Source of the DNA: Fibrobacteria bacterium
Lineage (GTDB): Bacteria > Fibrobacterota > Fibrobacteria > UBA11236
Length of the DNA: 31,536 bases
Assembly: GCA_041746255.1 (NCBI GenBank)
Contig: JBGTHM010000108.1
Span: forward strand, 1-31,536
Reading direction: 5' to 3'
Position numbers and translations under genes: made by a program. The notes beneath the pieces were generated by a model. The model did no database searches, was not told the DNA's origin, and was given only the letters and a program-made list of their open reading frames with translations. Shown piece after piece: positions 1 through 24,997 of the stretch. Numbering within the stretch: the stretch's first letter is position 1; each line of letters opens with the position of its first letter.

Positions 1-937
1 CGGGCACGTCGACCTTGAAATCAACTATTGCGGAACCGCCCGCCGGAACCAAAGTAGTCTGTACATTCCTTTGATTCGGGATGGTACCGCCTTCCGTATA
101 GACCACGTCGAAAATCTCGCCAATTACGTGGAATGACGAAACCAGATTAGGGCCGCCGTTGCCGACGAAGAGGCGCAGGGTTTCACCGACCTGGGCTTTA
201 ACGGCATTATCGCCGGCCATGGCCCCGACCGCTCCGTTGAAAACCACATAATCCGCATCTTCCCTTACGGCTTTTTCCATGGAAAAGGCCTGCAGGCCAG
301 GCGCCCCATATTTTCCTTCGGTATAAAAATCGCTTTGCATGACATAGAATTCACGGTCAACTTTGGGAAGCCCGCCTTTGGGTTCCACAAAAATGAGACC
401 ATACATACCATTGGCGACATGCATGCCTACAGGCGCGGTGGCGCAATGATAAACATAAAGACCGGGGTTAAGCGCTTTGAAGGAAAAGACGGAAGTATGG
501 CCCGGCGCCGTAAAGGAGGCGGCCGCTCCTCCGCCAGGCCCCGTCACCGCATGTAAATCGATGTTATGCGGTACCTTGGAATCGGGGTGATTATGTAAAT
601 GGAATTCCACTTCGTCTCCTTCACGGATACGTATGAATTTTCCCGGAACGCTGCCGCCGAAGGTCCAGAATACATAGCGGGTTCCATCAACAATGGTTTT
701 TTCGACTTCGGTGACTTCCAGATGCACTACCATCTTGGTGGCATGCGTACGGGTAATGGGCGGTGGCACATTGGGAGCGTCGGTCAGAATCGCCACTTCC
801 TCTCCGACAATCCGGTCATCGGCGGGCGCCTGGGATTTCTTCTCGCCATTGTTGCAGGCCGATAGGGTTCCCGCCAGAGCAAAGGCAAGCCCCAGAGTGA
901 AAATTCGAAATGGAAGGGAAGTTTTAGGAAAAGACAT
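1..937 (-). CDS. nirK: Copper-containing nitrite reductase (AniA/clade II-type, lipoprotein), 3' end truncated by window edge
   Basis: Manual minus-strand translation from ATG at 937 (AAGGAG RBS upstream): [28 protein letters not shown] (lipobox LSAC)...[19 protein letters not shown]...[15 protein letters not shown]...[20 protein letters not shown]...[18 protein letters not shown]...QTTLVPAGG. The T1/T2 Cu ligand motifs and the SSFHVIG catalytic His motif are diagnostic. Not in the ORF track because the stop lies outside the window. Confidence 0.97.
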
Positions 938-1009
938 GATTATACTCCTTGAGTTTAATTCGCATTGCGAGACTCGATTTCCAATCTCAACACACATACC
1001 GTATACCAA

Positions 1010-1025
1010 AGCAAAAATCCGGCCA
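1010..1025 (-). promoter_or_regulatory. Sigma-54 (-24/-12) promoter for nirK
   Basis: Minus strand reads TGGCCGGATTTTTGCT: GG-N10-GC with TTGC at -12, about 70 bp upstream of the nirK start. Confidence 0.7.
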
Positions 1026-1055
1026 CACTTTAAAAGATAACCGAACATCTGATCC

Positions 1056-1075
1056 AAAAGACAAATATGTCCATT
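1056..1075. promoter_or_regulatory. Operator-like box, copy 1 (GAY-N6-RTCCATT)
   Basis: AAAAGACAAATATGTCCATT aligns with the copies at 1263-1282 and 6671-6690. Confidence 0.55.
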
Positions 1076-1144
1076 AAGAGGCGATTCAAGCCATCGAACT
1101 CCGTTGAATCCCCGAATGCGCTTTATATCAGCCTTTGGCATCCT

Positions 1145-1370: not shown

Positions 1371-3443
1371 ATGCTAGACAAAGGAATTATCGGATTGACG
1401 GGCCTTATGTTTCTGGCTTTAGGGTTGCTGACGCCCTCTCCGGCAACGGCGGAAACCCAAATCCATCCGCTCATCGAAAAGAGCAATTGCCTGGCCTGCC
1501 ATCAGATAAGTGGCAAAGCGATAGGTCCGAACTTTTCCGAAATAGCTTTAAAGTACGGCAAACAAGATTCCCGGAAATTACTGGAAAAAATCCGGGACGG
1601 AGGCAGTGGAACTTGGGGAGCCATCCCCATGCCCCCCCATCCGCAACTTTCCGAATCCGACCTGCAAGCGATGGTCGAATGGATTCTGGCTTTAGGCGAG
1701 AAATCAGCCCCGGCGGTCGCCAAATCCCCCAGGCTGGGAACCAAACCCGGGGAAATGATTGAATACCGGCAATTTCCCATCATTGGAAGCCGGGTGGCGA
1801 TTTGGATCCTGGCCCAGTTGCATCTCATGTTTGCCGCCTTCGTACTCGCCGTCCCCATGTTTGCCTTGATAATCGAATATATCGGCTACCGCACCGGCGA
1901 AAAGCGTTATGACCAACTCGCCCATGAATTCACCAAACTGCTTTCGACTTCCTTTTCCTTTACGGCCGCATTGGGAACCCTGCTCACCTTCATGCTTTAC
2001 TTTCTCTATCCGAAATTGATGACGTATCTGACTTCCATTTTCGGTTGGACTTTCCTGCCCTACGTTCTCCTGTTTTTCGGGGAGGCGGTTTTCCTCTATT
2101 CCTACTACTACGGCTGGGGAAAGTTCAGTCCCCGAATCCACCTCGCTTTGGGAGTAGGCCTCAACCTTACCGGTATCGGAATCCTTTTCATCGCCGACGG
2201 ATGGCTGACCTTCATGAATACTCCCGGCGGGGTGACTGAGACGGGTGAGCTGCTCTCGACCTGGGATGCCGTCAACAATTACACCTGGATGCCCATCAAC
2301 ATCCATCGCCTGATCGCCAACGTGGCTTTCGGCGGCTCCATTGCGGCCGCTTACGGGGCGTATAAATTTCTGGGAGCCAAAACCGACGAAGAGAAGGCCC
2401 ATTACGATTGGATGGGTTATATGGGCAACTTCATCGCAATCGCAGCCCTGCTCCCCCTCTCCTTTGCGGGGTATTGGCTGGGTAAGGAAATCTACGCCTA
2501 CTCCCAGAACATGGGCATGACCTTAATGGGGGGCGCCTTTTCCTGGCTATTCATCATCCAAGGGGTACTCATCGGAGTTCTCTTTCTCGCCGCCAACTAT
2601 TACCTGTGGCTTGGCATGGGCCGCATACAGGGGGCTGAACGATTCCGCGGTTTCATTAAATGGTTGCTGGCCGTGATTACCATTTGCTTTATCGTATGGG
2701 CCACACCGCATTCCCTGATCGCCACCGTGCAGGAGGCGAGAGCCATGGGAGGCTCCCACCATCCCTCGCTGCGGGTTCTTGGAGTGATGTCGGCCAAGAA
2801 CACGGCCGTGAACATTCTCATTCTCACCACTTTCGTCAGCTTCCTGCTCTACCGCAGGGGAAACAAACAGGCTACGGTATCCTGGGCAAGATACGGCAAC
2901 TATGCCCAGTTCGGAATTTTCGCGGGGGTCTCCCTCTTCGTGATTTTTCTGGGAGTTTACGGCTATTTCGTGGAAGCGGCCGTGCGCATCAAGCTCTCCA
3001 TCCCGCAAGTGTTATCGGTACTTTTCGCCATGGTATCCGTTACGATATTGGACATAGCGTTGTTTCACAAGGCGAAGATAACCGGTGAAATCAAATGGGG
3101 AAGCATGCCCAGGAGAGCGCAATACGCCCTGTTTCTCATCGCCATCACTTTCACCTGGATCATGGGGCTCATGGGATACGTGCGCTCGGGAATCCGTCAG
3201 CATTGGCATGTACATGGCATCATGCGCGACACATCGCCCGAGGCCTATACGCCCACCTTGGGATTCGCCGCCAATGTGGTTTCCATCACCGTAATGATGT
3301 TTTTCGCCTTGATTTCCATCGTCTTTTGGCTGGCCAGCCTTACCGGCCGGAAAAATTGGAGCCCGCCTCCCATAAGCGGAATGGCTCCGCCGCCCGGAAT
3401 TTCCTTGCAAGCCATGCCGAGCGATAAGGAGGCTGCGCATTGA
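1371..3443 (+). CDS. Cytochrome c551/c552-like domain fused to a cytochrome bd-like (CydA-like) integral membrane oxidoreductase subunit
   Basis: Signal peptide, then a class I cyt c (CLACH...GPNF..IA.KY...GGSGTWGAIPMPPH), then many TM helices. CydA-equivalent motifs: QLHLMFAAFVLAVP (His19-like), FFGEAVFLYSYYYGW, IHRLIANVAFGG (His186-like), and RSGIRQHW in place of xExGRQPW. No recognisable Q-loop. Confidence 0.85.
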   Translation: MLDKGIIGLTGLMFLALGLLTPSPATAETQIHPLIEKSNCLACHQISGKAIGPNFSEIALKYGKQDSRKLLEKIRDGGSGTWGAIPMPPHPQLSESDLQAMVEWILALGEKSAPAVAKSPRLGTKPGEMIEYRQFPIIGSRVAIWILAQLHLMFAAFVLAVPMFALIIEYIGYRTGEKRYDQLAHEFTKLLSTSFSFTAALGTLLTFMLYFLYPKLMTYLTSIFGWTFLPYVLLFFGEAVFLYSYYYGWGKFSPRIHLALGVGLNLTGIGILFIADGWLTFMNTPGGVTETGELLSTWDAVNNYTWMPINIHRLIANVAFGGSIAAAYGAYKFLGAKTDEEKAHYDWMGYMGNFIAIAALLPLSFAGYWLGKEIYAYSQNMGMTLMGGAFSWLFIIQGVLIGVLFLAANYYLWLGMGRIQGAERFRGFIKWLLAVITICFIVWATPHSLIATVQEARAMGGSHHPSLRVLGVMSAKNTAVNILILTTFVSFLLYRRGNKQATVSWARYGNYAQFGIFAGVSLFVIFLGVYGYFVEAAVRIKLSIPQVLSVLFAMVSVTILDIALFHKAKITGEIKWGSMPRRAQYALFLIAITFTWIMGLMGYVRSGIRQHWHVHGIMRDTSPEAYTPTLGFAANVVSITVMMFFALISIVFWLASLTGRKNWSPPPISGMAPPPGISLQAMPSDKEAAH

Positions 3444-4264
3444 AAAACTTCATGAACATCCTCTTATTCACCTTGTTGGTTACCGCTTTCTATACCTATG
3501 TGGGCCATATGGTACCCCAACAGGAATTCCATCCTCCCCAGGAATTGGAAATACGTCCCGATATGTCCACCGCCGAATTGGTGGAAGTCGGACGCGAGCT
3601 TGCCGCCGGAAAAGGAACTTGCATGGCCTGCCATACCCTCGGCAAAGGCGAGGGCGGGCGTTTTCCCGATCTGGAAAACATAGGAGTGAAAGCCGAGAGC
3701 CGGCGCCCGGACATGAGCTCCCTGGATTATCTGGCGGAATCGCTATACGAACCCGAAGCCTTCATCGTAGAAGGCTTCAACCCGGGCATGCCCGCCGTGC
3801 ATAAAGCCCCAATCAGTTTATCCGATGCCGAAATCATCGCCATTATCGCCTGGATGCAAACGCTGGGAGGAGAGGCAACCGTCGGCCTTTCCGCTACCCA
3901 TAAATACTCCGGGGCGTCAGCTCAATCAGAATCGCCGGTTGCCACCAAAGTTGCAGGAGAAAAATTTCTTGGGGTAGCCGCCGTCGATGGTCCTGGGGTT
4001 TACCAGAAATACGGATGCTCATCCTGTCATAGTATGTCCTCATCCGAAAGCCTGCTGGGTCCCTCTTTGGCGAATATCGGCAACCGTCTCACAACACCCG
4101 AACTCTATCGGGCCCTGCTGGAACCCGATGCCGTGGTAGCGGAGGGATACGCGCCGGGAGTAATGGCGGCCTCCTTGGCAGCCTCGGGATTTTATGAAAA
4201 AGCAACCGCCGGCGAATTACGCGTATTGGTGGAGTTCCTTTCAACCCGGAAAGGTGCACAATGA
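3440..4264 (+). CDS. Membrane-anchored diheme cytochrome c
   Basis: TTG start overlaps the upstream TGA, with an AAGGAGG RBS. N-terminal TM, CMACH and CSSCH motifs, and repeated YLAESLYEP/LYRALLEPDA..GY motifs typical of class I cyt c domains. Confidence 0.9.
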   Translation: MKNFMNILLFTLLVTAFYTYVGHMVPQQEFHPPQELEIRPDMSTAELVEVGRELAAGKGTCMACHTLGKGEGGRFPDLENIGVKAESRRPDMSSLDYLAESLYEPEAFIVEGFNPGMPAVHKAPISLSDAEIIAIIAWMQTLGGEATVGLSATHKYSGASAQSESPVATKVAGEKFLGVAAVDGPGVYQKYGCSSCHSMSSSESLLGPSLANIGNRLTTPELYRALLEPDAVVAEGYAPGVMAASLAASGFYEKATAGELRVLVEFLSTRKGAQ

Positions 4265-5073
4265 ATATCTGGGTTTTATCCGGCGTCATGGTCTTCTTGA
4301 TGGGACTGAGATTTTTCCGTCCGAACATACTCGCCTGGTTGACGGCGATATGGATTTCCTGCTTCATTTTTCTCCGCTATGGAATAGAACCGCCCGCCCC
4401 GGCCTCCATCGTCAAATTTTTCATGGCCATCATCACCGGGTCTTTGGCCCTATATGCAACGGCCGATGCCGGGCGAATGGACGAAGCCCTATCGTTACTC
4501 AAGAAATGGACCACCGAGCCGCGATATCGACGCCTATTGGCAATCGGAATCTTGGTGATTCCAGTTTTTCTGGGTTACGGCGCCTACAGACAAGCATCGC
4601 TCGGAGTCCAACCTCCTTCCTCCGGAAGAACCGTCCATCCGGCTCCTCCCGACGAAATCACTTTCAAGGGGAAGCGCATTGATCTGATAACCGGAGACAA
4701 CCCTTACCGAAAATTGGAGACCACCGATAAGGAAGCGTTCGCGAGCCACCTCGAAAATGGCCGGAAAATCTATTATCAAAACTGTGTCTTTTGTCATGGA
4801 GACAATATGGAGGCCGAAGGAAACTTCGCCCATGGGTTTGATCCGCTTCCGGCGAACTTTCTCCAGGCCACCACCATCGCCATGTTGGAAGAAAGCTACC
4901 TGTTCTGGCGTATCGCCAAAGGAGGCCCCGGGCTACCGGAAGCGGGAACGCCTTGGTTAAGCAGCATGCCGGCCTGGGAGGATCGGCTCAGCGAAGAGGA
5001 TATCTGGGATGTCATTATGTTCCTTTACGAATTCACAGGACATCGGCCCCGTGCCAAGGAGAATGTGAGATGA
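4261..5073 (+). CDS. Membrane protein (about 4 TM) with C-terminal monoheme cytochrome c
   Basis: ATGA overlap, hydrophobic N-half, CVFCH, and WRIAKGGPGLP..SMPAW with a distal Met. Confidence 0.88.
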   Translation: MNIWVLSGVMVFLMGLRFFRPNILAWLTAIWISCFIFLRYGIEPPAPASIVKFFMAIITGSLALYATADAGRMDEALSLLKKWTTEPRYRRLLAIGILVIPVFLGYGAYRQASLGVQPPSSGRTVHPAPPDEITFKGKRIDLITGDNPYRKLETTDKEAFASHLENGRKIYYQNCVFCHGDNMEAEGNFAHGFDPLPANFLQATTIAMLEESYLFWRIAKGGPGLPEAGTPWLSSMPAWEDRLSEEDIWDVIMFLYEFTGHRPRAKENVR

Positions 5074-6650
5074 GCCTGACGCAACGAATTGCAGTGAAAG
5101 GCCGTTGGCGTGGAAACATGATTTTGTCGCTATCCCTTTTAATCGTCATGAAACTATCCGTGGAAAACGCGGGCGCTGCCGATGCGAAACAACTTGAGAG
5201 AGGAAAGGCAATCTACGACGCGAAGTGCAGCCAATGCCACGGTTACGCAGGCGACGCCAAAGCGGTGGGTGCTGAATACAATCACCCCTTACCCCGCGAT
5301 TTCACTTACGGAGTCTATAAGATTCGCACCACCGAAAGCGGCGAACTTCCCACCGACCGGGATTTACGCAATATCATCCGCAAGGGAATGCCCTATACCG
5401 GAATGCCGCCATGGCCACGCTTGACCGATCAGAATCTCGACGACGTGGTGCAATACATCAAAACCTTCGCCGATGATTTTTCCGATTCGGTGATGACTCC
5501 CATCGAAATCGTCATTCCCAAGGCTCCCAAATATTCGGAGGAATCCGCCCGGAAAGGCCTGGAAATTTTTCGCGAAAACAAGTGCATGGATTGTCATGGC
5601 GAATTCGGACGAGGCGACGGAGAGTCCGCCCCCACTTTAACGGACGATTGGAATCAATTCATCCATCCCGCTAATTTGACCAAACCCTGGACCTTCAGGG
5701 GGGGCGCCGAGCGCGAAGACATTTACCGAACCATCGTAACCGGCCTGAATGGAACGCCTATGCCTTCCTTCGCCACCATCGAAGAGGAGGATCGCTGGCA
5801 TCTGGTGAATTATATCCATTCGCTCTCTCCGAACAAAAAGGCTCCCTATACCAACCTGGTACTCGGAGAATTTTCGGACGAGCCTTTGGACTTGGAGCGC
5901 GGGGACGAGCTTTTTAAGAATGCGACGCCATCCCTCTTTCCCGTGGTTGGTCAAGTCATTGAAGATCCCCGCAGTTTTCAACCGGCCGCAAATGCCATTT
6001 CGGTGCAGGCCGTTTACGACAGCACGCATGTCGCCATTCGTCTGTCATGGCACGATATGAGTGCGCAGCGAAAGGGTAGCAATACCCCGGTCACCCAAAC
6101 GGTTCGGAATGATTCGAGCGAACCGAGCGCGGTAATATCCAAAAACCCGTCCCAGGAGGTCTATTCCGATGCCGTAGCCTTGCAAATACCCCACAAGTCG
6201 CCCAGTGGCCGGGCATTGCCCTACTTCCTCTTCGGCGACGGAAAAAACCCCGTCGATATCTGGTTCGCTGACCTCGGAAAAGACTCTCCGCAAGGCTTCA
6301 TCGGCAAGGGAGCGTCCAACCTTACCGCAGCCGAATCAGACCTCCATATGCGAAGCGATTACCGTGACGGGGAATGGTCCGTCATTTTTAAAAGTCCGCG
6401 CCATCCCGAAAAAGGCATGCCTTTCCATCCGGAAGAATTCATCCCCATTGCGTTTTCTATTTGGGACGGATTTTCAGAGGAAACCGGCAATAAGCGAGGC
6501 ATCACTTCCTGGTACAACCTGTACTTGAAATCACCCGTGCAAACCTCCCCTTTCCTTCCGGCGGCGCGAAAGGCAGGCCTAGCCATGGGATTGCAAATCG
6601 TATTGCTTTTCGCGTTACGCCACCATTATCGACGCAAGGGTAACTTGTAA
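5070..6650 (+). CDS. Diheme cytochrome c with ethylbenzene dehydrogenase gamma-like (EB_dh/DOMON-like) domain and C-terminal TM anchor
   Basis: True start is probably ATG 5070 (ATGA overlap, AAGGAG RBS), not 4953. CSQCH and CMDCH. EB_dh-like motifs: VQAVYD..HVAIRLSWHD, SDAVALQIP, VDIWF, YRDGEWSVIFK, IAFSIWDG..ETGNKR. Confidence 0.85.
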   Translation: MSLTQRIAVKGRWRGNMILSLSLLIVMKLSVENAGAADAKQLERGKAIYDAKCSQCHGYAGDAKAVGAEYNHPLPRDFTYGVYKIRTTESGELPTDRDLRNIIRKGMPYTGMPPWPRLTDQNLDDVVQYIKTFADDFSDSVMTPIEIVIPKAPKYSEESARKGLEIFRENKCMDCHGEFGRGDGESAPTLTDDWNQFIHPANLTKPWTFRGGAEREDIYRTIVTGLNGTPMPSFATIEEEDRWHLVNYIHSLSPNKKAPYTNLVLGEFSDEPLDLERGDELFKNATPSLFPVVGQVIEDPRSFQPAANAISVQAVYDSTHVAIRLSWHDMSAQRKGSNTPVTQTVRNDSSEPSAVISKNPSQEVYSDAVALQIPHKSPSGRALPYFLFGDGKNPVDIWFADLGKDSPQGFIGKGASNLTAAESDLHMRSDYRDGEWSVIFKSPRHPEKGMPFHPEEFIPIAFSIWDGFSEETGNKRGITSWYNLYLKSPVQTSPFLPAARKAGLAMGLQIVLLFALRHHYRRKGNL

Positions 6651-6653
6651 ATT

Positions 6654-6669
6654 CGGCAAGGGAATTGCA
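6654..6669 (+). promoter_or_regulatory. Internal sigma-54 (-24/-12) promoter for the downstream half of the cluster
   Basis: CGGCAAGGGAATTGCA: GG-N10-GC with TTGCA, just after the 6650 stop in the only large intergenic gap of the cluster. Confidence 0.65.
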
Positions 6670-6670
6670 T

Positions 6671-6690
6671 AACAGACAATTTTATCCATT
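6671..6690. promoter_or_regulatory. Operator-like box, copy 3, overlapping the predicted transcription start
   Basis: AACAGACAATTTTATCCATT aligns with the boxes at 1056 and 1263. Confidence 0.55.
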
Positions 6691-6820
6691 TATATGCCAA
6701 GGGAGTGCCGGATGACCGCCCAAAAGACCCTCAAAACACCTTTTAGCCGCTGGCATGGGCTTTGATATGGAAAAGGAGGATGCCTTGCCGAAATCGAAGC
6801 ATGAAAAAGGAATACTTTAC

Positions 6821-7729
6821 ATGAAAACGGCGCTATTGGGAATTTTACTTTTTGCCACGGGAACGTTCGCCGGTTCGGAACTTTTACCTTCTTCCGTGAG
6901 GGGCGAAGGGGTATACCAAAGAGCCTGTGCGGCATGCCATGGCGACAACGGAGACGGCCAAGGCCCGGCGGCGAAATTCCTCGATCCCCTTCCACGCGAC
7001 TTTATTGCCGGTCAGTATAAATTCCGCTCCACACCCAGCGGAGAATTGCCGACGGATGCGGATCTGATCCGTATCGTGGAAGACGGTATTCCCCGTACCC
7101 AAATGCCCGGCTGGAAGCGGCTGCTCACACCCCAAGAAATTCATGACGTGGTGGCCTATCTCAAAACCTTCAACGCGGATTTCCAGGAATTCGGAGCCCC
7201 CGAGGCCATCACGGTTCCCACTCCCCCAGCGGCTTCTCCCGCCCTCATCGAAGAAGGCCGCATGGTTTACATGGTCATGGAATGCTGGGCCTGCCATGGT
7301 GGAAGCGGAAAAGGGAACGGCGCTTCCGCCAAGGGCCTTAAGGACGATGCGGGAAATAAAATCCTTCCCTGGAACTTGACGAATTTCCGCTACAAGGCGG
7401 GTAACGATCCCCATACACTTTACCGCACTATTTCCACCGGATTGAACGGAACCCCCATGCCTTCCTTCACGGGCGTATTTCTCTTCGAAGGAGGTCAATT
7501 CGACGCAGCCAAGTATTCCGAGGCCTATGGAGAAGAGGATATTCAATTACTGCGAGCGTATTTCCGTGCCCAACCCTCGTTGACCGCGCTGGAATCCATG
7601 ACCGATGAAGATCGAAAGCACCTGGAAGAAAAACGGAAATGGGCCCTGGTCCATTACGTCGGCTCTTTGCCCAAGAAGCCGAATCTGTTTCACCGGCTAT
7701 TCTGGGCGGACACGGAAGTGACCAAATGA
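6821..7729 (+). CDS. Periplasmic diheme cytochrome c (paralog of the diheme domain of 5070-6650)
   Basis: Probable start MKTALLGILL at 6821 (signal peptide). CAACH and CWACH. Shares PLPRDF..G.YK.R.T.SGELPTD.DL and TGLNGTPMPSF with the upstream protein. Confidence 0.9.
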   Translation: MKTALLGILLFATGTFAGSELLPSSVRGEGVYQRACAACHGDNGDGQGPAAKFLDPLPRDFIAGQYKFRSTPSGELPTDADLIRIVEDGIPRTQMPGWKRLLTPQEIHDVVAYLKTFNADFQEFGAPEAITVPTPPAASPALIEEGRMVYMVMECWACHGGSGKGNGASAKGLKDDAGNKILPWNLTNFRYKAGNDPHTLYRTISTGLNGTPMPSFTGVFLFEGGQFDAAKYSEAYGEEDIQLLRAYFRAQPSLTALESMTDEDRKHLEEKRKWALVHYVGSLPKKPNLFHRLFWADTEVTK

Positions 7730-7752
7730 CCCCTGGAAAGGAGATGAGAGTT

Positions 7753-8277
7753 ATGCAGTCATGGCTATTCCTTCTATCGCTAGGACTTGTCGGCTTGTTG
7801 CTGGCGGCATGCGTAGAACCTGTGGGGAGCGGAACCGGACTAACCGAAAGCGGGAGGCTCGCGGCAGCTCCCACTCCAATCGATACGGCAAACCCCGATC
7901 CGGTCGATCCCGGACCCGTGGATACCAATGCGCTCGCCGCAAACTTTTTCGCCAACCAGGTTCTGCCGATATTCCAGGAGAATTGCACCCAATGCCATTC
8001 GCCGGGATCACAGGGCTATAACTACACCAAATTGACCCTGGAACTCGATAAGGCTTATGCCGCCCTGGTGAACGTTCCTTCCACCGAAATGAAGGCGCCC
8101 CGGCCGGAAATGTTGTTGGTAAAACCCGGAATGCCCGACAGCAGCTTTCTCTACAATAAAATCGCGTTCGACAAACCGCTGGCCTTCGCCCGCATGCCTC
8201 TGCAGAAACCAAAACTTTCCGCTACCGATATCGATATCATAAAGAAATGGATCGAGGGTGGATCCCCGGAAAATTGA
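7753..8277 (+). CDS. Monoheme cytochrome c lipoprotein (planctomycete-cytochrome-c-like domain)
   Basis: AAGGAG RBS 9 nt before ATG 7753 (alternative start 7726). Lipobox LAAC and Pro-rich linker, then F..QVLPIFQENCTQCH...LVKPG.PDSS.L..KI...MP...LS..DI..I.KWI..G. Confidence 0.82.
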   Translation: MQSWLFLLSLGLVGLLLAACVEPVGSGTGLTESGRLAAAPTPIDTANPDPVDPGPVDTNALAANFFANQVLPIFQENCTQCHSPGSQGYNYTKLTLELDKAYAALVNVPSTEMKAPRPEMLLVKPGMPDSSFLYNKIAFDKPLAFARMPLQKPKLSATDIDIIKKWIEGGSPEN

Positions 8278-8298
8278 AGTGAAGAAGGAGTTATTGTG

Positions 8299-9384
8299 AT
8301 GCGCATGTATAAATCCACCATCAGCCTGACTTTCGGGATAATTGGAGCCTGCTTGTTCGCGGCAGCGCCGAGGATATACGCCGAGCCTTATATCGCCGTC
8401 CGTTCGGGAATGAAGTGCAGCGTATGCCACGTCAACAAATCCGGCGGGGGAATGCGCACCGATTACGGGTCCGTATACTCCCAATACCAATTGCTCCTGG
8501 CCACGGCGGGAGGGAAAAAGTTGCCGTTTTCCTTCGATCCCAAATTGAACAAATCCATAACCGTAGGCGCCAATTGGCGCGTGGAACAGGTACGCATATC
8601 CCAATACACCAACGACAGCGGGAAGGTATTTCCCTCTGCCGATGAATCCACCATCCGCGAAGGAAACCTGTACCTCAACCTGGAATTGGTCAAAAATTTC
8701 CTTTCCCTTTATATCGACCAGACCATGGCTCCATCTTCGACTAATCGCGAATTTTTCGCCACCGTCGAAGGACCCCATAACACCTTCTTCAAATTCGGAC
8801 GCATGCTGCTTCCTTATGGATTGAGACTGATGGATGACGAAGCATTCATCCGCAATACAACCAACTACACCTACAATCGACATGATTTGGGATATGAAGT
8901 AGGATGGGAGCCCGGCCCCGTTTCGGCCATCGTCAACGTCACCAATACCCAACTCTCGTCGGTGGGTTCGGTAAACTTCCGCCGGGTACGGGTTGGCGGA
9001 TCCTACGGCTCGGCCATCCAGAAGCTGGAGCGGGATAAAAAGAACACCTACGGGATATTCGGGGGAGCCAATGCCGGAATGTTCACCTTTTTGCTGGAGC
9101 GGAACTGGACTAAAAACGTCGATATTAAAAGCGTATCGACGCTGGCGGAAGTAAATGTATTACCGATACGCGGCCTCAACTTCAAGACCACCTATGAATA
9201 CCTGCATCCCGATACCATGATACCCCGGGATCAGAACGGGCAGCAGCGCTATACCTTCGGAGCGGAGCCGTTTTTGACCCAGTGGTTTCAAATCGGATTG
9301 TACTACCGTAAAAACGACTGGATTCCCCAAAACGGTCCCAAGAACCAGGATCAAATCATCGGCAGGCTGCACACTTTCTTTTAG
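8299..9384 (+). CDS. Monoheme cytochrome c-outer membrane beta-barrel (porin) fusion, Cyc2-like architecture
   Basis: Signal peptide, then AEPYIAVRSGMKCSVCH directly after the cleavage site, then alternating beta-strand-like segments (FKFGRMLLPYG, LGYEVGW, YTFGAEPF) ending in an aromatic beta-signal (RLHTFF). Confidence 0.75.
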   Translation: MRMYKSTISLTFGIIGACLFAAAPRIYAEPYIAVRSGMKCSVCHVNKSGGGMRTDYGSVYSQYQLLLATAGGKKLPFSFDPKLNKSITVGANWRVEQVRISQYTNDSGKVFPSADESTIREGNLYLNLELVKNFLSLYIDQTMAPSSTNREFFATVEGPHNTFFKFGRMLLPYGLRLMDDEAFIRNTTNYTYNRHDLGYEVGWEPGPVSAIVNVTNTQLSSVGSVNFRRVRVGGSYGSAIQKLERDKKNTYGIFGGANAGMFTFLLERNWTKNVDIKSVSTLAEVNVLPIRGLNFKTTYEYLHPDTMIPRDQNGQQRYTFGAEPFLTQWFQIGLYYRKNDWIPQNGPKNQDQIIGRLHTFF

Positions 9385-9429
9385 CCTATCGCCAAAAAGT
9401 CCATCATAAACATCACCGGAGGAAATACC

Positions 9430-10122
9430 ATGACATGCATACGAAAAACCAGCTTACTGCTCCTCGCCGGAGCCTGCGCCCTATGGGCGGGAGGCAGCAT
9501 CACCGGAACCGTCAAGGTGAAAGGCGACATCCCCAAGGATGAAACCCGCATCGTCACCAAGAATGCCGAGCAATGCGGAGCCAAAATGAACGCGCAAAAG
9601 TATGTCATTTCCGCTTCCGGCGGCGTGAAATGGGCGGTCGCCATGCTGGAAGAAGCCCCCAAAGGTGGAAAGGCTTGGGGCCAAGTCGACCTGGTCTACA
9701 ACAACAAAGAGTGCCGATTCGAGCCGCATGTTCTCATTGCGCCCACCGGAGGTACCTTGAAGGTTTCCAATAGCGACGACATGTTGCATAACGCCAATTT
9801 TTCCCAGGTCGAGGGAGACAAGAAAAAGGGAATCGTCAATCTCGCCCTGCCGCGCAAGGGATTGGTGCTTGAGAACAATCGGATACTTCGGAGGGCCGGA
9901 CTTATTTCCGTCGAATGCGACGCGCATGACTTCATGCAGGGCTGGATCTGGTCGCTTCCCCATCCTTACGCTTCGGTCACCGACAGCAACGGCGGTTTCA
10001 AAATCGATGACGTGCCGCCCGGATCGTATAAATTGAAAGTCTGGCACGAAGGACTGGGTGAAAAAATCGTAGAGGTCAAAGTCGAGGACGGCCAGGACTC
10101 CAAGGTAAACGTCGAGCTTTGA
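9430..10122 (+). CDS. Secreted cupredoxin-like / carboxypeptidase-regulatory-like domain protein
   Basis: GGAGG RBS and signal peptide. Motifs GSITGTV, CRFEPHV, NSDDMLHN, CDAHDFM (His...Cys-x2-His-x2-Met, type-1-Cu-like) and FKIDDVPPGSYKLKVWHE. Confidence 0.75.
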   Translation: MTCIRKTSLLLLAGACALWAGGSITGTVKVKGDIPKDETRIVTKNAEQCGAKMNAQKYVISASGGVKWAVAMLEEAPKGGKAWGQVDLVYNNKECRFEPHVLIAPTGGTLKVSNSDDMLHNANFSQVEGDKKKGIVNLALPRKGLVLENNRILRRAGLISVECDAHDFMQGWIWSLPHPYASVTDSNGGFKIDDVPPGSYKLKVWHEGLGEKIVEVKVEDGQDSKVNVEL

Positions 10123-10155
10123 AACCCGTACGGATTGGTCGCAAAGGGAATGACG

Positions 10156-11421
10156 ATGCTTACGCCGCAAGAGAAATTCACCCCCTATCTTGTGGCCGTC
10201 AACCTCACCGCCAGCTGCAATCTGGCGTGCGCGCATTGCTATATGGACGCGGACCAGCGTGGCAAACCCGCTTCCGACGAACTGGATAACGCGGAACTGG
10301 CGGGGCTTTTCCAGGAAATCGCCGAACGGGCGCCCGGCACCATTATCGTGCTCACCGGCGGCGAACCCTTGCTCCGCCCCGATCTTCCACTCATCGTCGC
10401 ATCCGGGGCGAAGGCGGGATTGCGCATGGTATTGGGAACCAATGGTTTATTGCTTACGCCCGAAAAGATTTCGCTTTTAAAAACCGCCGGACTTCAGGGA
10501 GTGGGCGTAAGCCTGGACGCCGTGGAGCCATCCGCCCATGATGAATTCCGCGGAGTACCCGGCGCATTCGCGCGGGCGCGCCAAGGAATCAAAAATTGCC
10601 GCGCACAGGACTTGCATGTGCAAATCCATTTCACCTTGACCCGCAAACAATTGGGACGCGAACAGGACGTGGTCAGCATGGCCAGGGAACTTGGAGCATC
10701 CATCGTCAATTTCTTTTTCCTGGTATGCGTCGGACGCGGTCAATCCGCAATGGACCTCACCCCGGAGGAATACGAAAACGCCCTGATCCGTATCGCGCGC
10801 TTGCAAAGGGATTCCCGCGAGATTCTGGTGCAGTCGCGTTGCACCCCGCATTTCAAGCGCATTCTTTACGAAACCGATCCGCAATCCGAATTCACCCGTG
10901 CCACCGGCTATGATGGCGGAGGCTGCCCAGCCGCAACCCATTATTGCCGCATCACCCCCAAAGGCGATATGACCCCCTGCCCTTACCTCGAGCTATCGGG
11001 AGGCAATATAAAGGAAAAAGGGTTCTGGAAAATCTGGGACGAGGCCAGGCTGTTCCAATCTTTTCGCGATCCATCCCTGTTGCAAGGGCGGTGCGGAAGT
11101 TGCGAGTACAAATTGATATGCGGAGGGTGCCGCGCCCGATCGCTGGCCGAAACCGGCAATTTGATGGGAGAGGATCCGAGTTGTTCCTACCAGCCGGTCG
11201 GAGGCGAAACGATTCCTGCGCGCTTGGAAAACGGACCGGAGCAAGTGGTTTGGACGCAAGCGGCGCGGGAGCGCCTGATAAAGGTTCCCCTTTTCTTGCG
11301 ACCCATGATCCGGAAAAAACTGGAAGAAAGAGCGCTACGCGAAGGCGTGGAAGTCACCCCGGAATTGATGCAGAAACACCGCTCCGAAAGACAAGCCCAA
11401 TTGGGCATGCGTTTCGGATAG
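10156..11421 (+). CDS. Radical SAM/SPASM protein, NirJ/AhbC/AhbD-like, with C-terminal PCP_red domain
   Basis: CNLACAHCY (CxxxCxxC), GGEPLLRPD, CTPHFKRI, SPASM cysteines GCPAA..YCRI...PCPY...CGSCEYKLICGGCRAR...DPSC, and C-terminal WTQAARERLIKVPLFLRPMIRKKLE. Start chosen from RBS spacing. Confidence 0.88.
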   Translation: MLTPQEKFTPYLVAVNLTASCNLACAHCYMDADQRGKPASDELDNAELAGLFQEIAERAPGTIIVLTGGEPLLRPDLPLIVASGAKAGLRMVLGTNGLLLTPEKISLLKTAGLQGVGVSLDAVEPSAHDEFRGVPGAFARARQGIKNCRAQDLHVQIHFTLTRKQLGREQDVVSMARELGASIVNFFFLVCVGRGQSAMDLTPEEYENALIRIARLQRDSREILVQSRCTPHFKRILYETDPQSEFTRATGYDGGGCPAATHYCRITPKGDMTPCPYLELSGGNIKEKGFWKIWDEARLFQSFRDPSLLQGRCGSCEYKLICGGCRARSLAETGNLMGEDPSCSYQPVGGETIPARLENGPEQVVWTQAARERLIKVPLFLRPMIRKKLEERALREGVEVTPELMQKHRSERQAQLGMRFG

Positions 11422-11440
11422 CAACGTCAGGAGAAGATCC

Positions 11441-14400
11441 ATGCAAATCGCCACCGCCGAAAAAATACCGCCTCTACCCGCGAACGTCATTGTAGGCGAG
11501 AATTCCGTGGACGTGAATTTGACTTCCGGTCTCAAGCGCCTGCCGCTGATTCCCTTGCCCGATCGCATGGTGGATTGGATGGAAGAGGGCCGCCGGTCGA
11601 TGTACGACAAGCTCCAAAACAAAGGCAAGCCGGCGTTCTTCTCCTCGCATCTGCCCGTCATGGTAACGTGGTCGGGAGACAAGGACATTCCTTTCAATTG
11701 CTCGAACAAGGGCGTCGGGCTCATCCCCAAGGAAAAATACCTGAAGCATTATATCCAGGTTTTCCGTTCGGTGCTGGAAAAAACCAAAGGCCGCCCTTGG
11801 CAAGAATCCATGGCGGAAAGAATCAAAGCGGTGTCGAGTTTTTATTTCAAACGCGAAGCCATCGATCTGCGCGCCTTGACCACTTTGGAAATTTTCCAGA
11901 AAACCACCTACCGAAATCTCATGTCCAATCCCATCGCGTCCTTGCATTACACGGGCAATGCACCCGATTACATGAGCTTTCAGGTCAATTGCGCGGTAGA
12001 GATAATCGGACCCGATGACCCCCGCCACACCTTTATCAAATTGGCCCGGGTGATGTTCGAATACGACAGTTTCCATATCGCCCAACCGGAATTTCCGCAC
12101 GCCTACATACTTTGGATCACCGAAGTGGGAGACAAGACTCCCTTTCGCGTAGAACAAAAGCCGGAGAACGTCGTCCATGTGAAGGGACGCGGCGATTTGG
12201 AATGGGACCCCGAAGCCATGCAATCGGTAAACCGCGCCCCCGGAATGATCCGGCAATTCATCACCGAGTCCATCGAAAAATACGCCCTTTCGCGCGGCTT
12301 CACGCGCATCGACGCCAAAGTGGTGCGCGAAGCCCGGGAAGTGATGGAACGCAATACGACTGCCGACGGCGAGGATAAACCCGCGTCCCAGCCCGAACAG
12401 CCCGTCGATTTGACCCGGTATCAGAGCATTTACGTGGGGCTCGATTCTTCGGAGCTTTCCACCGCCGCCACCGAATTGGCCGTGCGCATGGGAAAGACCT
12501 ACGGGTCCACCCTGCACGGTAGCCACGTATACGCCGCCAAAATGCATGACAACCGATTCCGTGCCATGGAAGGAGGCCTGCCTGCTGAATATCAACAAGA
12601 GAAGGAGCTGGAAAAACAACGTAAAATCCATGACAGCCTCATCACCAAAGGTTTGGAGCTCATCACCGACTCCTATCTCGAGGTCATGGCGCGCGAATGC
12701 GCGAAACATCAGGTAACCTATACCCCGGTTTCACTCGAAGGGAAGAATTGGCAGGCTCTCTCCAAAGATATCGCTTCGCACGCTCACGACCTCATAGTCT
12801 TCGGCGGTTTCGGCATCGGCCGTGTCAGCCGATCCCTGCTCGGCTCGGTGACGGAGAGAACCCTGCGACGTGTGCGGCGCGATTTCCTTATTTGCAAGCG
12901 CACGGAGATGGAGAATCAATCGGATACCATCGTGGTCTGCCTCGACGGCAGCGAGAGAAGTTGGGGCGGGTTGCAACGAGCCTTCAGCCTGGCCGAAAAA
13001 TTCGATAAACGTATCGTAGCGGTTTCCGCCTTCGATCCCTATTTCCATTATGCCATGTTCAAGAGCCTCAATACGGCGCTGACGGACAAGGCCCGCAAGG
13101 TTTTCAAATTCGAGGAGCAGGAAAAGCTCCACGAAGACATCATCGATTCGGGATTGGCGAAAATCTATCAGTCCTATTTGAATATCGCGGAAAGACTAGC
13201 CGAAAAAGCCGGGGTTTCCATCGATACCAAATTGCTGGACGGCAAACCCTTTGAAAAAATCCTGCAATATTGCGAAGAAAATCCGCCCTGGCTCGTGGTA
13301 CTCGGACGCATCGGCTTCCACAGCGAAGAAGACATGGATTTGGGCAGCAATACGGAAAACCTGTGCCGCATGTCCCCCTTCAATTTGCTGATAGTGGAAA
13401 GTAAAAGCAAACCCCCGGTGGAATTCCAGGCCGAAGAGACGGTGAGTTGGACGGTGGAAGCCAAGGAGCGCATGCATAAGGTTCCCGATATGGCGCGCCC
13501 CATGGCAATGAAGGCCATCCAAGGATATTGCATTGCCGAAGGCCATACCGTCATCACCGAATCCATTCTTTTCGAAGCGTTGCGATCCATCATGCCTCCC
13601 GAGGCGCTGGCCCGCATGGGAATCGATCTCGAAGCCAAACGCGAAGCCGAAGCGGAGGTTGTCGATCGAATCGAACTGTCTTTCCGCTGTCCCGTATGCG
13701 GATTCCATCATCAAGGTTCCCGGCCCGTCTCCTGCCCCGTATGCGGCCGTGAAGGAGCGGTGTTCCAACTGCTGGAAAAATCGGAAGTGAAGGACGGCGA
13801 AGCCCAAAACACGCTGGGCAACCGCAAACTGATATGGGAACGCGAAGCCTTGGAAAAGATCGAGGCGATACCCGATCCGGTTTGGCGCGAACAATTACGC
13901 AACCGGGTAGAGAAACGGGCCTTGACTGACAAAGCCGCCGGCGTCACGGTGGAAATGGTTCAAGCCGCGCAGGAAGTCCAATCCTTCGCCGCGCCGGTTT
14001 CGAGTGGCGGACACCAGAACCCCACCCTGCCGACAAACGTTCCATCCTCGGCCGCGGCGAAGCCGCTTTGGACCGAAGCCGGATTGGAACGTCTCGAACG
14101 CATACCCGAGGGCTTTATGCGGCATGCGGCCAAGACCACGGTGGAAAAATTCGCGGTTGAAAAAGGCCATCTGCAAATCAGCCTGGAAGTGGCGGAAGCC
14201 GGACTGGGAAAGGCCCGGGAAATGATGCGGGATGCCATGGCCGGCCGTATCGCACATCCAGGGGCCGAAGTACCGGAAGCCACAGGAACGGTAGCTTGGG
14301 AATGCCATGTATGCGGATTCACTGCCGATGGAAGCAAACCGAGTGAATGTGGCAATTGCGCCACCGGTCATTTCATGCCGGTGACTTCGGAGAAACACGC

Positions 14401-14788
14401 GAAGCTGCCACTCTCGGTCTTCCAAAAACTGGATTGGGATACTGATTCGCTACAACGTCTGGAACGGGTCCCCGAAGGTTTCATGCGCGACATGACCCGC
14501 TGGCGCGTTGAGAAGTGGACGCGCGCGGACGGTCGGAATAAAGTGGATTTCGCCGCTATGGCCGATAAATTCGAAAATTGGGCCGAAGGCAGCGCAAAAC
14601 ACAAGACGACGCTGCCTTGGAGCCAGGAAGCCGAAGCCAGGGCGAACCGTATCCCCGGTTTCATTCGAGCGATAGTAATGAAAGAAGTGGAGAAAAGGGC
14701 TCAATTTCTGGGAAAAACCACAATCGATGAAAGTGGTTTCGACGAGGCCGTAAAGCATTGGTCCGCTACCGGATCCTTTCACGGTTAA
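11441..14788 (+). CDS. Multidomain protein: split-barrel (PNPOx-like) N-domain, 2 universal stress protein domains, 2 rubredoxin-like Cys4 domains, 6 PCP_red repeats
   Basis: USP motifs IYVGLDSSE..S...LLGSVTERTLR and IVVCLDGSERS...LGSNTENL. Cys4 motifs CPVCG..CPVCG and CHVCG..CGNC. Six W..EA..R...(V/I)P..(F/M)R-type repeats. N-domain contains TTLEIF..TTYRNL..NP.ASL.YT....SFQVNC.VEI. Confidence 0.85.
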   Translation: MQIATAEKIPPLPANVIVGENSVDVNLTSGLKRLPLIPLPDRMVDWMEEGRRSMYDKLQNKGKPAFFSSHLPVMVTWSGDKDIPFNCSNKGVGLIPKEKYLKHYIQVFRSVLEKTKGRPWQESMAERIKAVSSFYFKREAIDLRALTTLEIFQKTTYRNLMSNPIASLHYTGNAPDYMSFQVNCAVEIIGPDDPRHTFIKLARVMFEYDSFHIAQPEFPHAYILWITEVGDKTPFRVEQKPENVVHVKGRGDLEWDPEAMQSVNRAPGMIRQFITESIEKYALSRGFTRIDAKVVREAREVMERNTTADGEDKPASQPEQPVDLTRYQSIYVGLDSSELSTAATELAVRMGKTYGSTLHGSHVYAAKMHDNRFRAMEGGLPAEYQQEKELEKQRKIHDSLITKGLELITDSYLEVMARECAKHQVTYTPVSLEGKNWQALSKDIASHAHDLIVFGGFGIGRVSRSLLGSVTERTLRRVRRDFLICKRTEMENQSDTIVVCLDGSERSWGGLQRAFSLAEKFDKRIVAVSAFDPYFHYAMFKSLNTALTDKARKVFKFEEQEKLHEDIIDSGLAKIYQSYLNIAERLAEKAGVSIDTKLLDGKPFEKILQYCEENPPWLVVLGRIGFHSEEDMDLGSNTENLCRMSPFNLLIVESKSKPPVEFQAEETVSWTVEAKERMHKVPDMARPMAMKAIQGYCIAEGHTVITESILFEALRSIMPPEALARMGIDLEAKREAEAEVVDRIELSFRCPVCGFHHQGSRPVSCPVCGREGAVFQLLEKSEVKDGEAQNTLGNRKLIWEREALEKIEAIPDPVWREQLRNRVEKRALTDKAAGVTVEMVQAAQEVQSFAAPVSSGGHQNPTLPTNVPSSAAAKPLWTEAGLERLERIPEGFMRHAAKTTVEKFAVEKGHLQISLEVAEAGLGKAREMMRDAMAGRIAHPGAEVPEATGTVAWECHVCGFTADGSKPSECGNCATGHFMPVTSEKHAKLPLSVFQKLDWDTDSLQRLERVPEGFMRDMTRWRVEKWTRADGRNKVDFAAMADKFENWAEGSAKHKTTLPWSQEAEARANRIPGFIRAIVMKEVEKRAQFLGKTTIDESGFDEAVKHWSATGSFHG

Positions 14789-17789: not shown

Positions 17790-19253
17790 GTGAACAACCA
17801 GGGAATCGCAAAAATCCTGCTGGACCACAGCCTCGCCACCCGTGAGCAATTGGAATCCCTGTGGCCCCAATTGAACGGACATGCGAATATCGCCGAACTG
17901 ATGGTGGGCGAAGGGTTGCTCGAACCGCAGGTCTATCGGCAATTGCTCGAGTATATCGCGAAGTTGGATGGGAAAAGTCCGGAAAAGCCTGTTGCGGAAA
18001 CCGTAAACAAAGCGCCAGTCCCTTCACCTCCGGACCAACCACCCACCCCGAGCGCCGGACAGCCGAACCCGGTTTCCAAACCAAAAGTTAAAGCCAAAAC
18101 CGCCCAGCCGGGAGAATTGCTTCCCATCGAGTTCCGCGGGCGCGCCGGTTTGGAACCCAGCGCAGCCACGGTCCCCGACAAGGTGGGCCCGGAAAGCACC
18201 TGGGAGGAAATCCTTCGCTTCGGCCGCGGCTGTGGCGCCACCGATCTCCACCTGTCTTCGCAAAGACCGTTGCTACTACGTTATCACGGCGGACTCCACC
18301 CCGCCGCTGAGGGAATTTTCCCGGTCGAGGCCGTGGAAACGCTGCTGGCCTCGGCGCTCACCCGGGAAGAACTCGCCCTCTTCAACGACAAGGGAGATTT
18401 TGAGTTCGTGTATACCCTGGAGGGCGCGGGCCGCTTTCGGGTTACCGCCATGCGGCATGCCAAGGGCCTGGACATAACGGTGCGCATCATTCCCATGCAT
18501 ATCCGCAGCTTCGAGGAATCCGGGCTTCCCGAAGGCTGCCGGGATCTCACCCGCTGGTCGCAAGGTCTCGTGCTGGTTACGGGTCCCGCCGGCTGCGGGA
18601 AAACCAGCACCTTGGCCACGCTGGTGGAAATGGTCAATCAATCCCGCCAGGACCATATCATTACGGTGGAAAAGCCGGTGGAAATCGTCTATACGCCCGC
18701 ACAATGCCAAATCACCCAGCGCGAACTCGGGCTGCACTCCCTTTCCCGCGACAACGCCTTGCGCGCCGCCCTGCGTCAGGACCCGGACATCATCGTCATC
18801 AGCGAGTTACGTGATCTCCAGGGTATTTCCATGGCCGTTTCTGCGGCGGAAACCGGCCATCTGGTTTTCGCCACCATGAATACCACCAACGCCTCGCGTA
18901 CCATCTACCGGCTCATCGATTCCTTTCCCGCGGACGAGCAGGCCATCGTCCGCAATATGATTTCCGAAAGCTTGCGCGGAGTCATATCCCAACAATTGCT
19001 TCCGCTCCTCGACGGTTCGGGCGTGGTTCCGGCTTACGAAGTATTGCTGGTCACTTCCGCGGTCGCCAACCTCATCCGCAAGGATGAGACCCATCAATTG
19101 GGCTCGGCCATGATGACCGGAAAGGGTTCCGGTATGGTCCTTCTCGACGATTCGCTGCGCCGCTTGGTGGAGACGGGCTTGGTCGCACCCGAAGAGGCAT
19201 ATAAACGCGCCAACAGCCCCAAGGATTTTGAACGTTACCTGAAAAAGGCCTGA
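17790..19253 (+). CDS. PilT/PilU-family type IV pilus ATPase with N-terminal extension
   Basis: ATDLHLS, GRFRV, LVLVTGPAGCGKTSTLA, LRAALRQDPD, ETGHLVFAT and AVANLIRK. Helical N-terminal extension plus a Pro-rich linker. Confidence 0.9.
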   Translation: MNNQGIAKILLDHSLATREQLESLWPQLNGHANIAELMVGEGLLEPQVYRQLLEYIAKLDGKSPEKPVAETVNKAPVPSPPDQPPTPSAGQPNPVSKPKVKAKTAQPGELLPIEFRGRAGLEPSAATVPDKVGPESTWEEILRFGRGCGATDLHLSSQRPLLLRYHGGLHPAAEGIFPVEAVETLLASALTREELALFNDKGDFEFVYTLEGAGRFRVTAMRHAKGLDITVRIIPMHIRSFEESGLPEGCRDLTRWSQGLVLVTGPAGCGKTSTLATLVEMVNQSRQDHIITVEKPVEIVYTPAQCQITQRELGLHSLSRDNALRAALRQDPDIIVISELRDLQGISMAVSAAETGHLVFATMNTTNASRTIYRLIDSFPADEQAIVRNMISESLRGVISQQLLPLLDGSGVVPAYEVLLVTSAVANLIRKDETHQLGSAMMTGKGSGMVLLDDSLRRLVETGLVAPEEAYKRANSPKDFERYLKKA

Positions 19254-19258
19254 GAACC

Positions 19259-24902: not shown

Positions 24903-24997
24903 AGGTCGCAAATTTGCTTTTAAATTCCCCAAATTGAGTATGTATAATGGCGGTGGACTGGACCCCCGAGGGATTTCCGGCACCCAATGAGGTAGGC

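Follow-up and report, generated by a model that had tools for sequence, protein, structure and literature searches.

The closest described counterparts of the protein considered here are the "bd-like" proteins known from Nitrospira, Nitrospina, anammox bacteria and Ca. Manganitrophus. Lücker 2013 (PMC3578206) reported a bd-like protein with 14 predicted helices in which the heme b ligands are kept, helices stand in for the Q-loop, and all quinol-binding residues are lost. Nitrospira moscoviensis has the same type of gene cluster, which is also conserved among Nitrospina and anammox bacteria (Mundinger 2019, PMC6606698; PMC3578206). A 2021 preprint by Murali, Gennis and Hemp (10.1101/2021.01.16.426971; the Murali preprint) names the family OR-N, with 14 helices in its OR-N1 and OR-N2 subtypes, and in this preprint, in a paper on Nitrospinota (PMC10839748) and in PMC12342949 OR-N is proposed to be a cytochrome c-oxidizing O2 reductase; the latter two papers also state that its subunits and function are still without experimental proof. 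We describe the product of an open reading frame (ORF) at positions 1371-3443 of a 31,536-nucleotide stretch of Fibrobacteria DNA (contig JBGTHM010000108.1 of assembly GCA_041746255.1), which we call the window. The protein belongs to the catalogued Nitrospira-type bd-like, or OR-N, family and is not a new kind of enzyme, but it carries a lineage-specific fusion to a cytochrome c552 domain. From sequence, we propose that it is probably the heme-bearing membrane subunit of an OR-N, most likely OR-N2, respiratory complex that works as a cytochrome c-fed terminal oxidase, with O2 as the likely oxidant.

The ORF is a real gene on the forward strand, and its 690-residue product falls into a short series of parts (Table 1). 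Pfam recognizes a cytochrome c domain (Cytochrom_C, PF00034) at residues 37-108 (E 3.9e-8) and a cytochrome bd subunit I domain (Cyt_bd_oxida_I, PF01654) at residues 140-381 (E 6.1e-26; 91.4 bits against a cut-off of 26.2), the latter match spanning profile positions 2-243 of 418 only. Among solved structures, the N-terminal domain matches cytochromes c552/c551 (2d0s_A, E 4.8e-23), and the membrane part matches CydA of mycobacteria (E 1.1e-15), Geobacillus (E 1.6e-11) and E. coli (E 3.8e-5). Met87 aligns with cytochrome c552 within a P-M-P-P motif and is presumably the axial heme ligand. Unfused orthologues likewise begin with a single hydrophobic segment, which a short spacer separates from a conserved E-Y-R-x-F-P motif; where the fusion is present, the c552 domain comes after the signal segment and ahead of this motif.

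A cofactor-free AlphaFold2 model built from a 38-sequence family alignment (A1) has a mean predicted local distance difference test score (pLDDT) of 83.2 and a predicted template modeling score of 0.79. It presents, in order, a signal segment (residues 2-20), a small helical heme c domain, a linker (pLDDT <50 at residues 114-126) and 13 transmembrane helices, for which the exported N-terminus would imply the N-out, C-in topology of CydA. In VIA structural alignments, the membrane domain matches ten solved CydA chains with Z 29.7-32.7 and a root-mean-square deviation (rmsd) of 3.6-4.5 Å over 338-364 residues; the match runs from about 132-138 to about 659-667 of the model and takes in nearly whole chains, such as residues 2-508 of E. 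coli CydA. Foldseek comparison of the model with CydA structures gave E 4e-9 to 3e-6, and the c552 domain superimposes on 2d0s with Z 12.7 and rmsd 1.7 Å over 79 residues. Extra helices at residues 391-416, 422-444, 473-496 and 506-531 occupy the position of CydA's Q-loop. On this model, the membrane domain is a CydA fold from end to end with four helices added, and an exported c552 domain is tethered to these 13 helices by a flexible linker. The initial annotation of the window had read the protein as an exported monoheme domain joined through an Ala/Pro linker to a membrane domain, with which Pfam, the 2d0s match and the model all agree. It had counted an intact Q-loop together with a canonical ligand set, or a fold other than that of CydA, as evidence against its view; what we found is the CydA fold, with helices replacing the Q-loop. 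The membrane-domain model also aligns with ActC, the NrfD-like subunit of alternative complex III (ACIII), both in 6btm_C (Z 20.0, rmsd 4.2 Å, 313 residues, 8% identity) and in 6f0k_C (Z 18.9).

To compare individual residues, we aligned the protein by profile-profile alignment (hhalign) with 30 canonical CydA sequences, namely that of E. coli, from its annotated record, and 29 from genomes of the window's phylum. The alignment of residues 128-390 has a probability of 99.4% (E 1e-21) and that of C-terminal residues 500-670 only 72.7% (E 3.2e-5); the structural alignment extends over CydA to its C-terminal end, and its helix order is consistent with the resulting map (Table 1). The mapped positions are kept in 25-30 of the 30 canonical sequences. 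By this alignment, the bd-like domain retains the His19 and His186 heme sites, which the initial annotation had already thought to be kept, together with the proton-channel Glu107, His126, and Arg448/Trp451. In the 38-sequence family alignment, the retained residues beyond the two heme-ligand histidines are Glu238 (32 sequences), His257 (37), Arg609 (35) and Trp612 (36).

The same map shows that the Q-loop, Lys252, Glu99 and Glu445 are missing, the last two being present in 29 and 30, respectively, of the 30 canonical sequences. The absence of a quinol-binding loop had been noted before; of the canonical loop residues Lys252 and Glu257, the first corresponds to a glycine at which the alignment ends, and four transmembrane helices fill the place of the loop. 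The replacements are themselves family traits, with Tyr231 and Leu600 each conserved in 35 of the 38 sequences, as are Met598 (34), Met601 (31), Arg605 (37) and His613 (34). A periplasmic loop at 445-472 holds His447 (29), Glu455 (36) and His464 (34), as well as a conserved His463. That the GRQPW motif is altered and its glutamate lost was also seen correctly in the initial annotation: the RQHW segment is the remnant of this motif, an assignment supported by the profile-profile alignment only, as a single-sequence alignment of the segment with 5doq was not significant (score -2.6). The extra histidines remarked on there fared unevenly, His613 being conserved, His611 partly so (25/38), and His615 specific to this sequence (His in 2/38, Tyr in 27/38). 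According to PMC6606698, a CuB-like site has been claimed for NIDE0901.

The genome from which the window derives is 4.59 Mb in size and 100% complete. The ORF is its sole PF01654 match, and a search for CydB (PF02322) gave 0 matches, which bears out the earlier statement that there is no cydB. No type II dimethyl sulfoxide reductase alpha subunit was found in the genome, the best score being 27.6 bits against a cut-off of 985; judged by its genes, the host is not a nitrite oxidizer of the nitrite oxidoreductase type.

What the initial annotation missed is that the family is both catalogued and widespread. Among 8000 scored candidates from a protein database, 7182 are relatives at E <1e-3, and at least 598 species genomes encode one (598 of 619 candidate stretches, with one genome per species). 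For 35 of the best 120 hits, coverage of the query is 90% or more and thus takes in the N-terminal domain; the other 85 lack the fusion, measure about 560-630 residues and share 70-78% identity in the membrane domain, with Krumholzibacteria, Calditrichia, KSB1 and Rhodothermia as the named sources. A precomputed Pfam cytochrome c match accompanies 28 of the 120. The best 80 loci include three fused forms (L007-L009, labeled Fibrobacteres/Fibrobacteria) and 77 that match from residue 83-131 on. A quick maximum-likelihood tree, computed from the membrane domains of the 38 aligned sequences, puts the window protein in a large clade of proteins 64-76% identical to it, whose sources include Rhodothermales, Acidobacteriota, Calditrichia and Myxococcota; a homologue bearing the names Nitrospira sp. 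and Ca. Manganitrophaceae (P0144/P0271, 41% identical) falls in a different clade. Since unfused orthologues are 64-76% identical, the heme c domain is a late addition to an OR-N protein.

A bd-like gene is present in 9 of 201 sampled genomes of the window's phylum, all of them in two families of one order; in seven of the nine the match begins no later than residue 32, in another it begins at residue 122, and the ninth is a fragment. In this sample the N-terminal c552 fusion is confined to that one order. On the quick tree, 12 N-terminally fused sequences fall in a group of 13 (SH-aLRT 92) together with one unfused Krumholzibacteria sequence, so arranged that parsimony counts two changes; a single origin of the fusion is possible. 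No donor gene for the c552 domain was identified among the neighbors of unfused loci, where the only match, a weak one (30% identity, E 1e-6), was to the cytochrome c tail on a COX2-like gene (L044/L045). Our literature search found no description of the N-terminal fusion, which a Joint Genome Institute annotation does name, and the word "N-terminal" has 0 occurrences in the Murali preprint. Three relatives (P0121, P0123 and P0134) instead have about 200-290 additional residues at the C-terminus that include a CxxCH motif and probably derive from fusion to the cytochrome c gene downstream; within this family, cytochrome c fusion has thus arisen at both ends of the protein.

Synteny was assessed in the best 80 related loci, with one genome per species, counting for each gene those loci with enough flanking DNA. 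The bd-like gene heads a widely conserved cassette in which three further cytochrome c genes follow (Table 1), with 4-base start/stop overlaps at 3440/3443, 4261/4264 and 5070/5073 that mark it as translationally coupled. The EB_dh domain of the third of these genes is the only one in the genome. For the second, whose product combines four membrane helices with a heme domain, an AlphaFold2 model (pLDDT 73.8) compared with 48,161 chains gave nothing above Z 8; the heme domain resembles class I cytochromes, including ACIII ActE (Z 6.5-7.2), and the membrane part has generic helix matches only, which are uninformative on a CydB-like role. One Myxococcota locus (L079) carries two divergent copies of the bd-like cassette, at 2284-6750 (-) and 7875-12735 (+).

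That cytochrome c is the electron donor of this family is a published hypothesis and not a new one, as PMC3578206, the Murali preprint and PMC10839748 make plain. In the window protein, the c552 fusion, the three coupled cytochrome c genes, and the loss of Lys252 and the Q-loop all argue for such a donor. The initial annotation had named cytochrome c, rather than quinol, as the partner; each of these features fits that assignment, which itself stays inferential. We envision that periplasmic c-type cytochromes deliver electrons to the fused c552 heme, the cassette's own hemes, or both, and that these electrons would then pass to the His312 heme near the periplasmic face and from there to the His151 heme. 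At the latter, a small oxidant, most likely O2, would be reduced with protons drawn from the cytoplasm by way of Glu238/His257, and the resulting charge separation would build membrane potential, as in cytochrome bd. Proteins encoded nearby, one a radical S-adenosylmethionine (SAM) enzyme resembling AhbD and NirJ and both with PCP_red domains, may supply a modified heme.

Several points weigh against this proposal. Our literature search found no purified or assayed member of the family, and O2 reduction is thus a hypothesis; the genome already has five heme-copper-family genes, which makes a further oxidase unneeded. CydB is absent, yet it is the subunit that, according to the Murali preprint, houses the O2 channel and a second path for protons in E. 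coli. Glu99, Glu445 and apparently Met393, which hold or flank hemes in true cytochrome bd, are missing, so that the di-heme site may differ, and the C-terminal residue map depends on the alignment of lower probability and on a model that holds no cofactors. The OR-N2 subtype, finally, is a probable assignment, made by description; the single CydA-like gene of the genome agrees with the statement in the Murali preprint that a second cydA is often lacking where OR-N2 occurs.

The initial annotation also raised the possibility of cofactors or substrates different from heme d and O2. Indirect support for this lies in the absence of Glu99, Glu445 and apparently Met393, and in a tightly linked gene for a radical SAM/SPASM enzyme of AhbD/NirJ2 type, which is followed by a gene for a protein with six PCP_red repeats (Table 1). 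The match of the former to AhbD, heme b synthase, scores 296 bits, under the cut-off of 500. All seven PCP_red matches of the genome are confined to these two genes, and such domains, as the structure of BchB illustrates, bind tetrapyrroles. In the sample of 201 genomes, full-length orthologues of the radical SAM protein (55-85% identical and reaching into the PCP_red tail) occur in exactly the nine that have the bd-like gene (9/9 versus 0/192), in six of the nine on the same contig; no other radical SAM match exceeds 41% identity, and most stop short of residue 400. The nine genomes are kin, and this co-occurrence represents one lineage rather than nine independent events. Across phyla, among 51 loci with at least 7.5 kb of flanking sequence, a Usp/PCP_red relative lies downstream in 48, a radical SAM gene in at least 20, and an Mrp/NUBPL-type ATPase gene in 17. 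Because ferrochelatase is encoded elsewhere in the genome, the radical SAM enzyme is probably not needed for bulk heme.

The strict co-occurrence hints at a modified heme, and the radical SAM protein is likely to be a tetrapyrrole-modifying partner of the bd-like complex; our literature search found no link between bd-like proteins and AhbD or NirJ. We also entertain, as a tentative and rather doubtful extension, that the cassette embodies a third kind of terminal oxidase chemistry built on a purpose-made tetrapyrrole. The radical SAM enzyme would alter heme side chains, the PCP_red-repeat protein would carry the product, and a remodeled site would bind it in place of hemes b595/d, with the c552 fusion marking cytochrome c as the physiological donor. 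The remodeled site would consist of Tyr231 in place of Glu99, Leu600 flanked by Met598 and Met601 in place of Glu445, and His447, His464 and His613 at the periplasmic face.

The main rival to a cytochrome c-fed oxidase is an electron-transfer module without oxygen chemistry, which would connect the quinone pool or parts of ACIII with periplasmic cytochromes c, in either direction, and for which the c552 domain would be the exit. An arrangement of this kind was raised in Lücker 2013 (PMC3578206) and in the N. moscoviensis paper (PMC6606698), and was once proposed for reverse electron flow in nitrite oxidizers. In 30 of 54 related loci an ActB-like ACIII gene is the immediate upstream neighbor, the model resembles ActC, and a module that only conducts electrons would be consistent with the loss of Glu99, Glu445 and apparently Met393. 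The resemblance to ActC, at Z 20 and 8% identity in a helical membrane protein, may reflect just a common arrangement of helices. No quinol-site residue of CydA is retained, with Gly382 in the place of Lys252 and the Q-loop gone, whereas residues of the catalytic heme and the proton channel (His19, Glu107 and His126), for which a mere conduit has no need, are kept. We consider this explanation unlikely.

A lesser chance attaches to the idea that the substrate to be reduced or detoxified is nitric oxide, or some small oxidant other than O2, and that the complex acts in concert with the neighboring copper nitrite reductase NirK, with c551/c552-type cytochromes feeding both. NirK (TIGR02376, E 3.7e-91) is encoded divergently at 2-1141 (-), 230 bases upstream of the bd-like gene, in an ORF that runs off the window; a 76%-identical NirK is found about 4-5 kb upstream in one related locus (L008), and the active-site residues are unlike those of true cytochrome bd. 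Against this, NirK is a neighbor in 1 of the 80 related loci, and of five fused-clade genomes four have NirK but none has it adjacent (on another contig in two, and at distances of 27 kb and 56 kb in the others), while genes for ACIII and caa3-type oxidases are much commoner neighbors. Linkage to NirK as a general feature was rejected on these counts. As for an ordinary quinol-oxidizing cytochrome bd subunit I that has picked up a cytochrome c domain, as the database name of its relatives, "cytochrome ubiquinol oxidase subunit I", and the above-cut-off PF01654 match would have it, this is extremely improbable and is refuted by the sequence, in which the Pfam match breaks off at profile position 243 of 418, the Q-loop has given way to four helices, and Lys252, Glu99, Glu445 and apparently Met393 are lost though present in 29-30 of 30 canonical sequences, in a genome that has no CydB.

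Table 1. Features of the bd-like protein and its neighbors in the window, with residue correspondences to E. coli CydA.
Feature	Position	Strand	Basis or occurrence
Signal peptide or signal anchor, residues 1-27	1371..1451	+	hydrophobic helix 2-20; Ala-x-Ala before Glu28
Fused class I cytochrome c551/c552 domain, residues 28-112	1452..1706	+	CxxCH C40/C43/H44, Met87
Ala/Pro/Lys-rich flexible linker, residues 113-131	1707..1763	+	ends in the family's conserved E-Y-R-x-F-P motif
13-helix CydA-fold membrane domain, residues 132-665	1764..3365	+	Pfam and structural alignment of model
His151 = CydA His19 (active-site heme ligand)	1821..1823	+	profile alignment; 36/38 family members; N-terminal alignment (99.4%)
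His312 = CydA His186 (heme b558 ligand)	2304..2306	+	profile alignment; 36/38 family members; N-terminal alignment (99.4%)
Four inserted transmembrane helices replacing the Q-loop, residues 391-531	2541..2963	+	secondary structure of model
R609-Q-H-W-H-V-H615, GRQPW remnant after helix 12	3195..3215	+	hhalign probability 72.7%, E 3.2e-5
CydA Glu99 = Tyr231			N-terminal alignment (99.4%)
CydA Glu107 = Glu238			N-terminal alignment (99.4%)
CydA His126 = His257			N-terminal alignment (99.4%)
CydA Lys252 = Gly382, where homology stops			N-terminal alignment (99.4%)
CydA Met393, inside a 9-residue gap			C-terminal alignment (72.7%)
CydA Trp441 = Trp596			C-terminal alignment (72.7%)
CydA Glu445 = Leu600			C-terminal alignment (72.7%)
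CydA Gly447 = Gly602, then a 6-residue insertion			C-terminal alignment (72.7%)
CydA Arg448-Gln449-Pro450-Trp451 = Arg609-Gln610-His611-Trp612			C-terminal alignment (72.7%)
Membrane-anchored diheme cytochrome c, 274 residues	3440..4264	+	in 68/70 loci with at least 1 kb downstream
Four-helix membrane domain with monoheme cytochrome c, 270 residues	4261..5073	+	in 66/66 loci with at least 1.9 kb downstream
Diheme cytochrome c fused to EB_dh/NxrC-like periplasmic heme b domain, C-terminal anchor, 526 residues	5070..6650	+	PF09459, TIGR03477; in 60/60 loci with at least 3.5 kb downstream
Two more c-type cytochrome genes: diheme, 6755-7729; monoheme, ~7726-8277	6755..8277	+	outside the conserved cassette; elsewhere only in L007
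Radical SAM/SPASM enzyme, AhbD/NirJ2 type, C-terminal PCP_red domain	10135..11421	+	NCBIfam AhbD E 4.3e-88, NirJ2 E 1.5e-82
1115-residue protein: six PCP_red repeats (Pfam), two Usp domains, rubredoxin-like motifs	11441..14788	+	Pfam/NCBIfam

The surroundings of the cassette differ between lineages. Upstream in other phyla, 30 of 54 loci have an ACIII ActB-like gene and 11 of the 54 have COX1: in Acidobacteriota and Myxococcota, the cassette lies downstream of ActA/ActB-like genes (examples are among L015, L085, L044 and L032), and in Rhodothermales, downstream of caa3-type COX2/COX1 genes. In the window, a 362-residue ORF at 8296-9384 (+) has a signal-like N-terminus, one CxxCH at residue 41 and a C-terminal aromatic residue, and may encode an outer-membrane heme protein; it has no Pfam or NCBIfam match, and a 62%-identical copy stands at the equivalent place in the fused-clade locus L007. 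About 8 kb downstream of the cluster is hemB, for delta-aminolevulinic acid dehydratase (23077-24078 (+); PF00490, E 4.8e-141), whose proximity is probably a coincidence. Two adjacent genes for T2SSE/PilB-like ATPases lie at 17790-20311 (+), and a GyrB/ParE-like and GyrA/ParC-like topoisomerase pair, with ORFs overlapping by 38 bases, at 24947-28916 (+). A scan for promoters and terminators gave no signal better than that of shuffled sequence.

OR-N bd-like proteins are the presumed terminal oxidases of nitrite oxidizers, and very similar proteins are encoded across many phyla. A natural fusion to c552 provides direct architectural evidence for the cytochrome c donor proposed for the family, as well as a self-contained construct for expression, and the residue map separates the cytochrome bd ligands that persist in the family from those that have been exchanged. 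A testable lead to an unusual cofactor comes from the strict co-occurrence with a radical SAM gene. Fusion and residue map together sharpen an old question, that of the function of bd-like oxidases, without answering it.

Set beside the systems already described, the window protein shares with the OR-N proteins of Nitrospira, Nitrospina, anammox bacteria and Ca. Manganitrophus the CydA-like first four helices, His19, helices in the place of the Q-loop, and the absence of a quinol site and of CydB. It also has their total of about 14 hydrophobic segments, here 13 helices and a signal segment, and their operon with c-type cytochromes and a periplasmic heme b protein, which are alternative donors; a matching cluster appears in PMC6606698. 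It differs in having c552 between the signal peptide and the membrane domain and in a host that is no nitrite oxidizer. The OR-C family likewise consists of CydA homologues that have no quinol site and bear a CxxCH heme c motif in the same polypeptide, but in the Murali preprint these have eight helices, a C-terminal multiheme extension and an adjacent OR-C1b, in contrast to the 13 helices, the one N-terminal heme c and the lack of a second PF01654 gene seen here. With canonical CydA (E. coli bd-I 6rko/6rx4 and bd-II 7ose, G. thermodenitrificans 5doq and mycobacterial 7d5i/9r2g), the common ground is the fold and the residues His19, Glu107, His126, His186, Arg448, Gln449 and Trp451; canonical CydA has 9 helices as against 13, and the window protein is without the Q-loop, Lys252, Glu99, Glu445, CydB and CydX, and apparently without Met393. 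Its fused heme c and its c-type cytochrome partners set it apart from canonical CydA as well. In caa3-type oxidases, which belong to an unrelated superfamily, a class I cytochrome c is fused C-terminally to the cupredoxin subunit II that it feeds, and by analogy the c552 domain of the bd-like protein may play the same role as the cytochrome c domain on caa3 subunit II.

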